Source of the DNA: a virus
Lineage: Duplodnaviria > Heunggongvirae > Uroviricota > Caudoviricetes
Strand: one strand, 5' to 3'
IMG/VR virus record: IMGVR_UViG_2521172589_000005
Length of the DNA stretch: 5,340 nucleotides
Shown: in pieces, positions 848 to 5,340 of the stretch
How the letters are laid out: the number at the start of each line of letters is the position of its first letter
How positions within the stretch are numbered: the first letter of the stretch is position 1
Translations under genes and position numbers: made by a program
Notes under the pieces: model-generated
Seen by the model: the letters and a program-made list of their open reading frames with translations, nothing else
Told to the model about the DNA's origin: nothing
The model's database searches: none

Positions 848-1255
848 TTATTTTATTGATTTATTTTTACGCGCTTTAAGCATTTCTTCGAAGAGTTTGT
901 TGAAGTTTTCTACTCTTGCGCGCATTTCAGACAGCAAGGCTTCCTGCTCGGAAGATGGAAGAGCATCGAATAATTCGATCAATTCTTTGTGGTTGGGAGT
1001 TAGCTCTGTTTCCACATGAAGTTCTTGTGCAGGCACTGGTGCCTTGTCTTCGTCACCAAACATTAGCCATGTAGGTGAGCACTTCAGAGCATCCGCTAAA
1101 GCAAACAATCGTTTTCCGACTGGCTGGGTTTCGTCTCTTTCCCATTGTGAAATTGTGACGTGAGCAACTCCAGCGAGGCGCGCAGCTTCTCGTTGTGTTA
1201 AGCGTAATTCTTTTCGTCGCGCCAGAACTCGCTGGCCTAGGGTTCTTGTATCCAT
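848..1255 (-). CDS. dicA: Prophage immunity repressor, XRE/cI-type helix-turn-helix, 135 aa (DicA-like)
   Basis: 135-aa ORF with a classic HTH (LTQREAARLAGVAHVTISQWERDETQP). Divergent from a 75/76-aa Cro-like gene and followed on the same strand by the ydfA/B/C-sized genes. Size equals K-12 DicA (135 aa). No recognisable Shine-Dalgarno before the ATG at 1255 and a TAGAAT -10 box lies only about 9 nt upstream, so the mRNA may be leaderless (inference). Confidence 0.8.
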   Translation of the reverse strand: MDTRTLGQRVLARRKELRLTQREAARLAGVAHVTISQWERDETQPVGKRLFALADALKCSPTWLMFGDEDKAPVPAQELHVETELTPNHKELIELFDALPSSEQEALLSEMRARVENFNKLFEEMLKARKNKSIK

Positions 1256-3054: not shown

Positions 3055-3477
3055 GTGGCAAAAGTTTTTACACAAGAAGAGCGGGAAAAAATTAAAGGGC
3101 AGGTGGTGGAACTCGTGCGCCAGAGCGGTCGTGAGACGTTACGGCAACTGGAAGCTAAAACAGGTGCGACTAGATATCTGATGAGCGTTCTTGCCAGAGA
3201 GCTGGTAGCCAGTGGCGATGTATACAACTCCGGCTACGGGTTATTCCCGTCTGAACAGGCGCGTAAGGACTGGCAAAACGCCCGCAAAAAACTCTCGAGG
3301 GCAAAGGTGAAGAAAACAGCTGTGGTTGATCCGGACCTTATCTGGTCGTTACCTGATGGAGAAATACGTCGCTACGACAGTCGCCTAAACATAATCTGTC
3401 GCGAGTGCCGGAAGAGCGAAGCTATGCAGCGTGTACTGGCTTTCTACCAGGGTAATTTTCAGGAGGCGGTACTGTGA
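3055..3477 (+). CDS. Hypothetical protein, 140 aa, in the slot where a helicase loader (P or DnaC-like) is normally found
   Basis: GTG start at 3055 preceded by a strong AAGGGGGA Shine-Dalgarno 5-6 nt upstream. No Walker A motif visible, so it is not a DnaC-like loader. Single CxxC (CRECRK) near the C-terminus. Function unknown. Confidence 0.75.
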   Translation: MAKVFTQEEREKIKGQVVELVRQSGRETLRQLEAKTGATRYLMSVLARELVASGDVYNSGYGLFPSEQARKDWQNARKKLSRAKVKKTAVVDPDLIWSLPDGEIRRYDSRLNIICRECRKSEAMQRVLAFYQGNFQEAVL

Positions 3478-3714
3478 GTGAAATTAGCTATCAGGCTTCA
3501 ATTGCCGCTGGCATTCGCATCAAAGGAGAGGAGCATGGAAATAAAACCAGAGGATTAGTTAAGCAATATCGTTTTATTTCCGATAAAAGAGGATGACCCT
3601 CGTAATCAGGTTAATTTTCTTTATGAGCCATCGGAAAGACCATATTGCCATCACGCTTCTGTCCGGGTTGACGAAAAAGAGCGTCAGGTCCGCTGTAAAA
3701 TCTGAGGTGCAGTT

Positions 3715-3891
3715 GTGGAGCCATTTGACTGGATGCTCTCTGTGGCGAAAAGAGAAACCAGACTGGCAGATGATGTAAGGCTCTTGCGCCAGGAGGAACG
3801 GGAAAGGCGAAAAAATATAGAAAAGCTAATTCAGATTGAGCGTAACGGGAAAGCGCGGATACGCAGGGTGACAAAATCCAGAACTGAATAA
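3715..3891 (+). CDS. Small basic, coiled-coil-like protein, 58 aa (hypothetical); below the ORF-track cutoff
   Basis: GTG at 3715 with GAGGTG Shine-Dalgarno 5 nt upstream. Product VEPFDWMLSVAKRETRLADDVRLLRQEERERRKNIEKLIQIERNGKARIRRVTKSRTE, stop TAA 3889-3891. Competes with the listed minus ORF 3611..3943, whose translation looks non-protein-like. Confidence 0.4.
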   Translation: MEPFDWMLSVAKRETRLADDVRLLRQEERERRKNIEKLIQIERNGKARIRRVTKSRTE

Positions 3892-3984: not shown

Positions 3985-4122
3985 ATGCGAAAGTTTAAAA
4001 TAATTATTGAAACGGGAATAGCCGGTGGAGATTTCGAGGATGAATTCGAAGTGGATAATGATGCGACGCCTGATGAAATACATGACGAAGCAAAAGATAT
4101 TTTCTTTAACTACTGCAATTAA
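3985..4122 (+). CDS. Very acidic small protein, 45 aa (hypothetical)
   Basis: ATG at 3985, stop TAA 4120-4122. Product MRKFKIIIETGIAGGDFEDEFEVDNDATPDEIHDEAKDIFFNYCN has 13 Asp/Glu in 45 residues. AGGAGG at 3955-3960 is separated from the ATG by a GC hairpin (3961-3978). Confidence 0.45.
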   Translation: MRKFKIIIETGIAGGDFEDEFEVDNDATPDEIHDEAKDIFFNYCN

Positions 4123-4159
4123 TCATATCACGAAATAAAAGACGAGGAGGAAGAACAAA

Positions 4160-4336
4160 ATGGCTGATTTTGGTTCAACTAAATACAACGTCGGTTTTGA
4201 AGAATGGCATGAACTGTTAATGGACTATGCAGAGTTACGTGGTGGCAGTGCTGCTGATGCTGAAGCATGGCGTGATGATTATGAAGCAGGAAAAACTCCG
4301 GTCGAAGCATATTGTGATGAGTGGGGCGATGAATGA
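4160..4336 (+). CDS. Very acidic small protein, 58 aa (hypothetical)
   Basis: GAGGAGG Shine-Dalgarno at 4144-4150 and ATG at 4160. Product MADFGSTKYNVGFEEWHELLMDYAELRGGSAADAEAWRDDYEAGKTPVEAYCDEWGDE has 16 Asp/Glu in 58 residues. Stop TGA 4334-4336 overlaps the next ATG (ATGA). Confidence 0.55.
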   Translation: MADFGSTKYNVGFEEWHELLMDYAELRGGSAADAEAWRDDYEAGKTPVEAYCDEWGDE

Positions 4337-4648
4337 GCGAGGTTAATTATCAGGAAGGGCATGAAACGGCGGGGCAAGCAAAAACAGTGGCATGGCGATA
4401 TCGCTACGTGAAAAAAAGGCGTTACGGACTTTCAGGGGAAGTAGTGGTCTGGTGACTGGAAATATGTACCGAAAAAAGAGGATTGTAACGATAGGCAGAA
4501 CTATGAAATTCAGGCCTTATTCACTGCCCCGCCAGTCCCGGTTACATCAGAAGAACTGGTTAAAGCTGTGCACTTTTATGAACAACTAAAACGCGAAAAT
4601 CCACCAGCATCCGGAAACCTGATTACAGATTCCCAGATAAGGCAATGA
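4333..4648 (+). pseudogene. Frame-split gene: 40-codon ORF (4333..4455) abutting a 67-codon protein-like frame (+1, 4445..4648) that has no start codon; frameshifted pseudogene or recoding candidate
   Basis: ATG 4333 is coupled to the upstream stop; this frame ends at TGA 4453-4455 in a TGA-C context. The +1 frame opens at 4445 and encodes ...DWKYVPKKEDCNDRQNYEIQALFTAPPVPVTSEELVKAVHFYEQLKRENPPASGNLITDSQIRQ with no ATG/GTG/TTG before codon 42. The track ORF 4392..4589 in the third frame looks non-coding. Confidence 0.35.
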
Positions 4649-4818
4649 GCTACCTGGCGCAGAACGGGCTGATAAGTATGGGGAATGTTTTACGATGAAT
4701 ATTTAGACTAAAGAGTTTGTAACGCTATGTAAGTGATTTTTTCTGGTTTAGATATTTATATGTCCGGCTAAATTGAGGTGTGTTTAAATGTTATTGCACA
4801 TTGATTGTAGGGGGAATA

Positions 4819-4998
4819 ATGAAAAACGCATTGCAGTTTTTGTTTGTTGCGTTCTGGTTGTTCGCATCATGTATGCCCATCATCTTCACAGCAAGGTATA
4901 TGGAAAAAGTTGATGTTTTGATATTAATATTTGGATATATAAATGCCCTTTTTTTAGGGGTGTTCATGGCGGTCATGTGCATTGAATACTGGCGGTAA
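4819..4998 (+). CDS. Small hydrophobic protein, 59 aa, two predicted transmembrane helices (hypothetical)
   Basis: Internal ATG at 4819 of track ORF 4780..4998, with AGGGGGA Shine-Dalgarno 4 nt upstream. Product MKNALQFLFVAFWLFASCMPIIFTARYMEKVDVLILIFGYINALFLGVFMAVMCIEYWR has two hydrophobic segments of about 20 residues. Sits in a visibly AT-rich islet (about 4680-5000). Confidence 0.55.
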   Translation: MKNALQFLFVAFWLFASCMPIIFTARYMEKVDVLILIFGYINALFLGVFMAVMCIEYWR

Positions 4999-5052
4999 AT
5001 ACAGCGAACTCCATTGGTTTAGTTGGATATTTACTGTGCTGGACAAAACGGT

Positions 5053-5080
5053 TTGCGGGGAAATCTTAGTTAAGTAGAAT
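5053..5080 (+). promoter_or_regulatory. Putative sigma70 promoter of the hok mRNA
   Basis: -35 TTGCGG (5053-5058), 16-nt spacer, -10 TAGAAT (5075-5080). Predicted start near 5087, immediately upstream of the tac-like element. Confidence 0.5.
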
Positions 5081-5087
5081 GACTGCG

Positions 5088-5255
5088 GGTGCTTGAGGCT
5101 ATCTGCCTCGGGCACGAACACCAACGGCAGGTAGAGAAAAGCCCCAGTTAACATTACGCGTCCTGCAAGACGCTTAACATTAATCTGAGGCCAATTTCAT
5201 GCTAGACACATGTAGGTTAGCCTCTTACGTGCCGAAAGGCAAGGAGAAGCAGGCT
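5088..5255 (+). promoter_or_regulatory. hok mRNA leader with tac-like 5' element and Sok-target region
   Basis: CTTGAGGCTATCTGCCTC (5092-5109) closely resembles the 5' tac element of plasmid R1 hok mRNA (CTTGAGGCTTTCTGCCTC, from memory). TAGCCTCTTAC...GCAAGGAGAAG..GGC.ATGAA upstream of the start likewise parallels the R1 mok/hok initiation region. AAGGAG Shine-Dalgarno at 5241-5246. Confidence 0.55.
5140..5207 (-). ncRNA. Putative Sok-like antisense RNA (boundaries approximate)
   Basis: On the minus strand: -35 TTGCCT (complement of 5237-5242), 17-nt spacer, -10 TAACCT (complement of 5214-5219), the same layout as the R1 sok promoter (TTGCGC-17-TATCCT). Transcript would be antisense to the hok leader. 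The 3' end is not defined; there is a GCGTC/GACGC hairpin near 5157-5172 but no clean U-tract. Confidence 0.4.
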
Positions 5256-5340
5256 ATGAAGCAGCAAAAGGCGATGTTAATCGCCCTGATCGTCATCTGT
5301 TTAACCGTCATAGTGACGGCACTGGTAACGAGGAAAGACC
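5256..5340 (+). CDS. hokD: Hok-family type I toxin, N-terminal 28 codons only (gene runs off the window end)
   Basis: ATG at 5256 with AAGGAG 9 nt upstream. Translation MKQQKAMLIALIVICLTVIVTALVTRKD matches the HokD (RelF)/Gef N-terminus and transmembrane segment as I recall them. Location on the dicC side of a Qin-like prophage fits hokD. Confidence 0.8.
   Translation, partial: MKQQKAMLIALIVICLTVIVTALVTRKD

Follow-up and report, generated by a model that had tools for sequence, protein, structure and literature searches.

The window, i.e., the whole 5,340-nt stretch of DNA analysed here, is 100% identical to a part of a Qin-type lambdoid prophage located beside rspB in Escherichia coli MLI110. 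According to the RefSeq annotation, transferred to window coordinates, it carries dicA (848–1255, minus strand), dicC (1333–1563), a YdaT-family gene, a replication gene, a DUF977 gene, several small early-region genes, and two pseudogenes. No RefSeq annotation is present in the gap from 4699 to 5255, after which hokD begins. The region in question, about 390 bp long, follows the stop codon of the last early-region gene (4698) and reaches to the beginning of the hok transcript, which was placed near 5087, in agreement with the first base of the Rfam match to the hok leader. Within this region lies an AT-rich cassette containing an open reading frame (ORF) for a 59-residue hydrophobic protein (Table 1).

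Table 1. Features in and around the AT-rich cassette, in window coordinates
Feature	Position	Strand	Description
Upstream early-region gene	4333..4698	+	RefSeq: disrupted here by a frameshift and an internal stop (pseudogene); intact in ST131 (171 aa)
AT-rich cassette, 36% G+C	4699..5044		Bounded by the early-region gene stop and the hok promoter -35
Antisense 63-aa ORF, probably spurious	4791..4982	-	Stop-free; two phage records annotate this or a frame-extended form
Shine-Dalgarno AGGGGGA	4809..4815	+	4 nt before the ATG
59-aa ORF MKNALQFLFVAFWLFASCMPIIFTARYMEKVDVLILIFGYINALFLGVFMAVMCIEYWR	4819..4998	+	ATG at 4819, stop at 4996-4998
Predicted transmembrane helix 1, residues 5-25	4831..4893	+	Hydropathy, AlphaFold2 helix 2-26, invariant columns
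Predicted transmembrane helix 2, residues 33-55	4915..4983	+	Hydropathy, AlphaFold2 helix 28-58, invariant columns
Run of seven T inside the ORF	4949..4955	+	Frameshift site in protein-database variants P0019, P0022, P0024, P0025
hok promoter, inferred	5052..5080	+	-35 TTTGCG/TTGCGG at 5052-5058, -10 TAGAAT at 5075-5080; by eye
hok mRNA leader with sok antisense region	5087..5261	+	Rfam RF01794, 107.8 bits, E = 1.3e-24
hokD coding sequence (MKQQKAMLIALIVICLTVIVTALVTRKD...)	5256..5340	+	RefSeq annotation of the identical record; cut off by the window end

The drop in base composition pointed out in the preliminary description was confirmed: the G+C content is 0.355 over 4699–5044 versus 0.47–0.49 in the flanks (0.466 in 4300–4698 and 0.490 in 5045–5340). 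Positions 4701–4900 form the lowest 200-nt window of the whole stretch, with a G+C content of 0.35; other low spots occur at 4001–4200 (0.365) and 701–1000 (0.38). Inside the cassette, the G+C content is 0.31 in 4699–4818 and 0.37 in the 59-aa ORF, where it amounts to 0.34, 0.29, and 0.51 at codon positions 1, 2, and 3, respectively. Since the low G+C content of the ORF is mostly due to codon positions 1 and 2, it reflects the hydrophobic amino acid composition of the product, not a foreign base composition, and the plainly AT-rich DNA is the 120-nt upstream spacer alone. Repeats detected in the spacer are only short matches typical of AT-rich DNA.

The edges of the cassette were defined by comparison with other prophages. 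The left edge is the base following the TGA at 4696–4698, where the upstream gene ends in L002; alleles of the upstream gene differ strongly from one another before 4699, and beyond it the sequence is nearly uniform. At the right edge, the homology of hok loci devoid of the islet begins at 5045 in the type represented by O157:H7 and ABU 83972, and at 5067–5068 in BL21-type and other loci. The islet-less hok prophages (BL21, O157:H7, ABU 83972, GTEN_24) thus have breakpoints at about 4699 and 5045–5068, and other short sequences join the upstream gene to the hok promoter in this slot. For example, in ABU 83972 the same upstream gene, ending in the same "...TTTTACGATGA", is directly followed by a 27-codon ORF and then by "AAAACGGTTTGCGGG", the -35 region of the hok promoter. 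The diverged left side, the uniform right side, and the position of the breakpoints show that the cassette spans 4699–5044 and belongs to the hok side of the junction; the limits of 4680–5000 proposed earlier were slightly off. The stretch is therefore a replaceable cassette at a defined slot. Its earlier description as separately acquired cargo holds as far as exchangeability is concerned, and the low G+C content of the ORF, being an amino acid effect, does not speak for a foreign origin. Among 5426 complete E. coli genomes, the islet is present in 1568 at an identity of at least 97.8%, and matches to the hok region were found in 4711. The small hydrophobic ORFs of 27 and 29 aa occupying the slot in other prophages were considered as a hok-specific theme, but this idea was dropped because 90 phage records also contain the 27-aa peptide, and the features named under it in the sampled rows were of the Ea22/EaA or DUF551 type.

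The 59-aa ORF is nested in a 72-aa ORF with a GTG start (4780..4998). The ATG at 4819 is the correct start, since in the second lineage of this protein described below, an in-frame TAA is located six codons upstream of its own ATG. The good Shine-Dalgarno site reported earlier is indeed present and reads AGGAGGA in about half of the alleles, owing to a G/A polymorphism at 4812 (61 versus 56). The run of seven T is kept in 112 of 113 IMG/VR alleles. The deduced protein has a GRAVY of 1.27 and is strongly hydrophobic at residues 5–25 and 33–55, and AlphaFold2 predicts two helices with a tight turn between them, with a mean pLDDT of 74. The end of helix 1 carries the conserved motif S17-C18-x-P20-I21-I22-x-T24. 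Conserved residues of helix 2 include F38-G39, N42-A43-L44, and G47-V48-F49, with a small residue at each fourth position (G39, A43, G47, A/S51).

On the opposite strand, the two phage records mentioned in Table 1 annotate the 63-aa frame rather than the sense ORF; in one of the two, it is called "hornerin". This antisense ORF had no match in Pfam, PHROGs, NCBIfam, or PADLOC, and differences between the two lineages are fewest at position 2 and most numerous at position 3 of the sense, not the antisense, frame. Ribosome profiling of the uropathogenic strain CFT073 has been accompanied by a catalogue of unannotated small membrane proteins (bioRxiv 10.64898/2026.09.28.754932). One of its candidates, the 192-nt SMP7 restricted to E. 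coli and Shigella, was considered as the 192-nt antisense ORF and rejected, because its coordinates fall in the microcin/sfa island.

The interior of the 59-aa ORF matches 1567 of the 5426 complete E. coli genomes. The frame is intact in 114 of 116 IMG/VR alleles, sampled by a flanking 30-mer and thus blind to the ORF itself, and in 269 of 274 of all loci fetched; the divergence among these alleles is too small for their open frame to be used as evidence of coding. No feature overlaps the ORF interior in any of 60 RefSeq records drawn at even intervals from the ranked 1567 genomes, and the same was found for the four RefSeq records inspected in detail. A word-indexed search of 5.8 billion proteins returned only E. 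coli and Shigella copies with at least 93% identity, along with truncated, frameshifted, or IS-interrupted forms.

A second, distant lineage was revealed by an exhaustive HMMER phmmer search of 1.84 billion protein representatives. Besides near-identical copies, this search returned an E. coli protein of the same length, 59 aa, aligned over residues 1–59 without gaps at 41% identity (E = 1.2e-8). Its locus is present in 1045 of the 5426 genomes, including CFT073, UTI89, ST131, and NRG 857C, and no RefSeq feature was found at the ORF in any of 30 sampled records. Repeating the word-indexed search with the two-lineage alignment gave no third lineage; three loci, all from Escherichia or Shigella, were recovered from species-representative genomes, and a metagenome scan returned the same two lineages and no others. 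As far as these searches reach, the small-protein family appears to be confined to Escherichia coli and Shigella. Strains carrying it include ST131 (JJ1886), CFT073, UTI89, the enterotoxigenic H10407, and IAI39, and CFT073 has intact copies of both lineages. Neither the 59-aa nor the 72-aa form matched Pfam, PHROGs, NCBIfam, or PADLOC, and no Pfam-A or NCBIfam family was found for the protein at E values of up to 10. A Foldseek comparison of the AlphaFold2 model with viral structures produced no match below E = 0.9, such a comparison being uninformative for a 59-residue predicted hairpin. A literature search found no paper on these peptides or on a small membrane protein gene beside hokD.

Since all homologues found belong to E. 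coli and Shigella, the two lineages alone were available for a test of coding. BLAST homology between them covers the ORF and about 22 nt past its stop, with none upstream, and the flanks are unalignable. Twenty-four columns of the protein alignment are invariant, among them S17, C18, P20, I21, I22, T24, Y27, F38, G39, N42, A43, L44, G47, V48, F49, I55, E56, W58, and R59. The nucleotide identity at codon positions 1, 2, and 3 is 0.58, 0.72, and 0.48, corresponding to 25, 17, and 31 differences, respectively (chi-square p = 0.03). The proportion of nonsynonymous differences (pN) is 0.34 versus 0.71 for synonymous ones (pS), and dN/dS is about 0.21, with dS near saturation. Judged by this alignment, the two lineages compare as coding sequences do, and the 59-aa ORF is very probably a real gene. 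The paralogue comparison, with the 114 intact alleles of the flank-chosen sample, bears out the small two-helix membrane protein gene of the preliminary description; homologues were not consistently absent or frameshifted in related prophages, which would have spoken against it.

In every context examined, the second lineage resides in a decayed prophage remnant between ttcA and uspF in B2 strains. The order of elements in this remnant is an integrase fragment, a DUF1627 fragment, the intact 59-codon ORF, a hok fragment, and a broken metal-transporter gene. The hok fragment, which begins 55 bp after the ORF, represents the 3' part of the coding sequence, is about 80% identical over 66 nt, and contains an in-frame stop. 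In lineage 1, the ORF ends 55 nt ahead of the -35 of the hok promoter. The ORF–hok arrangement is common to both lineages, whose silent sites are saturated, and the linkage is therefore old. The comparison also locates the place where, in K-12-type Qin prophages, the promoter and sok region of hokD became separated from its coding sequence: in this rearrangement, the hokD start codon is the exact insertion point of an IS element, ydfW, flxA, ydfV, and relBE.

Overall, the best explanation is that positions 4819–4998 are likely to be a genuine protein-coding gene, one of the two lineages of a small-protein family. The gene travels in a cassette of about 350 bp that Qin-type lambdoid prophages carry in their early rightward region, after the last gene of this region and ahead of the hokD promoter. 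Its 59-residue product would insert in the inner membrane as a helical hairpin. Both termini are probably cytoplasmic, as supported by K2 (R2-K3 in the paralogue) at the N-terminus, by a loop of seven residues that is neutral to acidic, and by a C-terminal tail of only four residues. In membrane helices, small residues spaced in this way, along with an Asn, favour tight helix–helix packing, and the conserved face of helix 2 (G39, A43, G47, A/S51, together with N42) may mediate packing, either between copies of the protein or onto a different membrane protein.

No promoter or terminator was found within 4300–5340 on either strand by a scan that also missed the hok promoter and is thus insensitive; the best promoter candidate by eye in this interval scored 8/12. 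Since no such signals were detected and the gene lies on the same strand as the early operon, it is probably expressed from the early rightward transcript of the prophage. Given the scan from which it comes, the suggestion that the gene has no promoter of its own is a weak one. Expression would occur mainly after induction or by read-through, and the transcript would run on into hok.

As for the role of the protein, our guess, by analogy, is a dispensable accessory function at the membrane level. Exclusion of incoming phage may tentatively be proposed, and membrane permeabilisation or toxicity is conceivable but somewhat unlikely. By analogy with known proteins, these two would be the likeliest roles, and no evidence separates either of them from modulation of a host membrane protein. 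The remaining probability falls to such modulation or to no current function.

One specific form of the toxic role would be a small membrane toxin of the type I or abortive-infection kind, pore-forming or depolarising and silenced by antisense RNA or mRNA structure, which would kill the cell upon phage attack or prophage loss in parallel to Hok. The size and hydrophobicity of the protein are within the range of known membrane toxins, the small-residue face of helix 2 with its conserved Asn is as in oligomerising helices, and the gene adjoins a type I toxin locus in both lineages. However, no RNA family was found in the cassette at the curated Rfam score, the sole sub-threshold row (ceN65, 4684–4749, E = 0.89) being at chance level, and the RNA fold of 4699–5086 is unremarkable (z = -1.68; 6 of 100 shuffles fold at least as well). 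The insensitive scan gave no promoter-like site on either strand, the Shine-Dalgarno site is strong, and no toxin was matched in Pfam, PADLOC, or NCBIfam. Moreover, the paralogue persists intact and alone in a decayed remnant, where the surrounding 1.2 kb or so, which is otherwise unannotated, contains no partner that could be recognised; this would be unexpected for an unguarded toxin. We consider this reading of the gene unlikely.

The proximity to hok could have a functional meaning. It is doubtful, but conceivable, that hok and the gene for the 59-residue protein constitute a two-gene membrane module of ancestral origin, or that the protein is an independent, so far undescribed exclusion determinant riding with hok since before the split. 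In such a module, the protein could buffer or potentiate Hok, or couple it to phage attack, and some hokD loci would then be three-component systems. The narrower proposal of a present-day Hok partner, in which the protein buffers or enhances Hok in the membrane or read-through from its gene tunes hok/sok expression, appears quite unlikely. It agrees with the location of both lineages directly upstream of hok sequence, at 55 nt in each case (from the -35 and, in CFT073, from the 3' fragment). The left edge of lineage 1 is a mosaic junction, its right side is continuous with the hok promoter, and no terminator-like site was found between the ORF and hok. However, the hok region is matched in 4711 genomes and the islet or ORF in only 1567–1568, so that most hokD-type loci lack the ORF. 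Besides, the gene is intact in the ttcA remnant of CFT073, where hok is a stump, and in prophages of the K-12 type, in which the hokD coding sequence now lies behind relBE, at a distance of about 3 kb. Since the ORF is preserved where hok is destroyed or moved, its dependence on hok is unlikely, and shared ancestry of the arrangement would explain the linkage with no need for a functional tie.

It is very unlikely that the ORF arose by chance as a stop-free frame in a T-rich non-coding spacer upstream of the hok promoter, although T-rich frames do yield hydrophobic peptides. Among dinucleotide shuffles of the 388-nt spacer, an ATG-initiated ORF of at least 59 codons appeared on the plus strand in 8% and on either strand in 16%; ORF length by itself is thus weak evidence and not significant (p = 0.08). 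The 63-aa frame open on the opposite strand, the lack of annotation in the sampled RefSeq records, and the absence of a family match in Pfam, PHROGs, and NCBIfam also agree with a chance origin. On the other hand, two transmembrane-like segments were present in just 3% of the chance ORFs obtained from the shuffles (p = 0.03), the observed hydropathy was reached by 3.8%, and the G+C excess at codon position 3 was matched by 0.7% (p = 0.007). The correctly spaced Shine-Dalgarno site is a further argument for a gene. The strongest contrast comes from the second lineage, which keeps the length, start, and stop with no gaps between unalignable flanks, with codon position 2 most and position 3 least conserved. 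In a simulation of neutral drift, in which the 73 observed differences were placed at random, the frame remained open in 3.5% of runs, and in 0.2% it did so with both the ATG and the stop preserved; at least 24 identical residues were retained in 0.6%.

The main point against current selection on the gene is the polymorphism within the lineages, which comprises 11 replacement versus 1 silent change in lineage 1 and 3 versus 0 in lineage 2, i.e., 14 versus 1 altogether, and thus gives no sign of recent purifying selection in either of them. This excess of replacements fits relaxed selection in decaying prophages, as well as the known surplus of replacement changes among very close genomes, and would also be compatible with a non-functional ORF. 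The common variants A16V, V31I, I37M, Y40H, and M53T are all at positions that differ between the lineages. The number of variable sites per site in lineage 1 is 0.028 in the ORF, where none of the changes in this comparison was silent, versus 0.08–0.16 in the flanks; this was not taken as a sign of selection, because recombination with other hok loci is a probable source of the diversity in the flanks, and the divergence within lineage 1 is too small for its polymorphism to serve as a test of coding.

Finally, a holin- or antiholin-like protein timing lysis is most improbable: the two transmembrane helices, the small residues at every fourth position of helix 2, a pattern resembling that of the pinholin of phage 21, and weak fold matches to proteins named holin (E of about 3 or more) are outweighed by the location of the ORF upstream of the Q antiterminator gene and, at a distance of about 6 kb, of the holin, lysozyme, and Rz genes that RefSeq annotates in this prophage, by the lack of a charged C-terminal tail and of a dual-start motif, by the absence of a holin family match in Pfam or PHROGs, and by the non-significance of the fold matches, all of which had E values above 0.9.

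With a two-lineage family of small membrane proteins as the preferred reading, the locus exposes an annotation gap concerning matches to the ORF interior in 1567 and to the paralogue locus in 1045 of the 5426 genomes, including those of much-studied pathogens. The family is new to the protein family libraries, being a member of none. The location in a defined slot beside a classic toxin locus makes a functional link to hok cleanly testable. If the protein excludes phages or acts with Hok, it would be a new small component of prophage-encoded host protection; if it does neither, it would be one more orphan prophage membrane peptide.

Comparison with known systems shows several partial likenesses. 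The kinship with superinfection-exclusion factors, abortive-infection effectors, other defence determinants, or type I toxins suggested in the preliminary description found no backing, since searches of PADLOC, Pfam, PHROGs, and NCBIfam gave no match; for described defence or superinfection-exclusion families, the count was zero in each of PADLOC, Pfam, and PHROGs. T4 Imm and HK97 gp15 are small phage inner-membrane proteins that block superinfection. Like them, the 59-aa protein is a short phage accessory protein with two predicted membrane helices, dispensable for growth and patchily distributed among relatives. However, it has no sequence, profile, or significant fold similarity to them, and its gene lies in the early rightward region beside hok, whereas these known exclusion genes are found at other sites.

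GhoT and OrtT are two-helix membrane toxins of E. coli. The protein shares with them a length of about 57–59 residues, the two hydrophobic helices, and the host, but it has no Pfam-A match at E values of up to 10, and no GhoS-like partner gene is located nearby. With 59 aa and the hydropathy given above, it is also within the generic size range of type I toxins (hydrophobic, up to about 60 residues). Proteins of the Hok/Gef family are likewise small and hydrophobic, are encoded immediately adjacent in the same prophages, and are linked to the 59-aa gene in both lineages. However, Hok has one helix with a periplasmic tail and is controlled by mok, sok, and the leader RNA, while the 59-aa protein has two helices; no Hok/Gef profile matched the latter, and the match to the sok leader model is confined to 5087–5261. 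The two-helix layout agrees with that of class II holins and pinholins, but neither the position in a lysis cassette nor a holin profile was found.

The cassette resembles a moron in that related prophages either have or lack it at a single exact position, in having a G+C content unlike that of its flanks, and in playing no core phage role. A classical moron brings its own promoter and terminator, whereas none was detected in the cassette by the low-sensitivity scan, and the gene is co-oriented with the early operon.

The 59-aa gene also shares features with the set of small membrane proteins described for CFT073 (bioRxiv 10.64898/2026.09.28.754932), namely a T-rich frame of less than 100 codons, a hydrophobic product, the lack of RefSeq annotation, a location in horizontally acquired DNA, and a narrow distribution; SMP7, the one candidate of suggestive length there, maps elsewhere. 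Judging from these sequence comparisons, no described family appears to include the 59-aa protein, which would at most resemble small accessory membrane proteins of phages. It is thus a new, narrowly distributed example of a well-known kind, the small prophage-borne membrane proteins.

The prophage that surrounds the 59-aa ORF is decaying: two early-region genes of the window are annotated in RefSeq as pseudogenes, and the counterpart of the second of them in ST131 is intact, with a length of 171 aa. Two GenBank phage records leave out the sense-strand membrane protein gene and annotate an antisense ORF instead, named 'hornerin' in one of them; this annotation is probably an artefact. Coordinates are collected in the table.

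Coordinates of features in the window and in the fetched comparison loci (L numbers)
Feature	Window	Other coordinates	Remarks
Early-region pseudogene (RefSeq)	3474-3891		internal stop
Early-region pseudogene (RefSeq)	4333-4698		frameshift and internal stop
Antisense ORF, minus strand	4791-4982	L005 6036-6287; L006 6036-6287	annotated in two GenBank phage records
hokD split, K-12-type Qin prophages	5242-5257	L004 3569-6321; L005 6569-9941	
Slot ORFs, islet-less prophages		L211 2418-2501; L212 about 2419-2502; L210 2389-2478; L213 2388-2477	
Paralogue of the 59-aa gene		L216 7152-7331; CFT073 NZ_CP058222.1 complement 2736441..2736620	41% identical; intact

Several database variants of the 59-aa ORF are frame-shifted at a run of seven T (window 4949-4955), for example ...NALFFRGVHGGHVH; since the seven T are kept in 112 of 113 IMG/VR alleles, these variants may have arisen through slippage or assembly errors. 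The ribosome-binding site carries a G/A polymorphism at window position 4812 that splits the alleles near-evenly, 61, including that of the window, having AGGGGGA versus 56 with the stronger AGGAGGA.

Homology between the window and Qin prophages of the K-12 type ends at the hokD start codon (5257), after which these prophages carry a block comprising an ISNCY-type transposase remnant, ydfW, flxA, ydfV, and relBE. The hokD coding sequence picks up again, from window position 5242, about 3 kb downstream, the two parts overlapping by 16 nt, AGGAGAAGCAGGCTAT. The islet in these prophages keeps the hok promoter, the leader, and the sok region, while hokD itself is now located behind relBE. A contiguous hokD coding sequence is missing in 25 of 105 IMG/VR alleles. 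In MG1655 (L007, 1640000-1656000) the whole region that runs from ydfX, the truncated YdaT-like gene, to ydfW has been lost, and this genome consequently has neither the islet nor the hok leader, which explains why the 59-aa gene was never noticed in K-12 work.

Prophages devoid of the islet carry different tiny hydrophobic ORFs in the slot between the upstream early-region gene and the hok promoter: a 27-aa ORF (MTWPEAFTTVGIAMAVALVVYSICRWG), whose ATG overlaps the stop codon of the upstream gene, in O157:H7 and ABU 83972, and a 29-aa ORF with a GTG start in BL21 and GTEN_24. The 27-aa peptide was also found in 90 phage records, chiefly of Stx phages, and the feature that it falls under, where named in the rows sampled, is of the Ea22/EaA- or DUF551-type; therefore, it is not hok-specific.

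The paralogue of the 59-aa gene resides in a decayed prophage remnant that lies between ttcA, the Rac attachment site, and uspF; of 5426 E. coli genomes, 1045 carry its locus. Neither CFT073 nor any of the 30 sampled RefSeq records has an annotated feature over the paralogue. The integrase, DUF1627, hok, and metal-transporter sequences beside it are without exception fragments; the paralogue itself is intact. On one IMG/VR contig (L215, 2146-3563), the ttcA remnant with the paralogue is preceded by putative toxin genes, which, judged from the translated ORFs, look like those for subunits B and C of cytolethal distending toxin.
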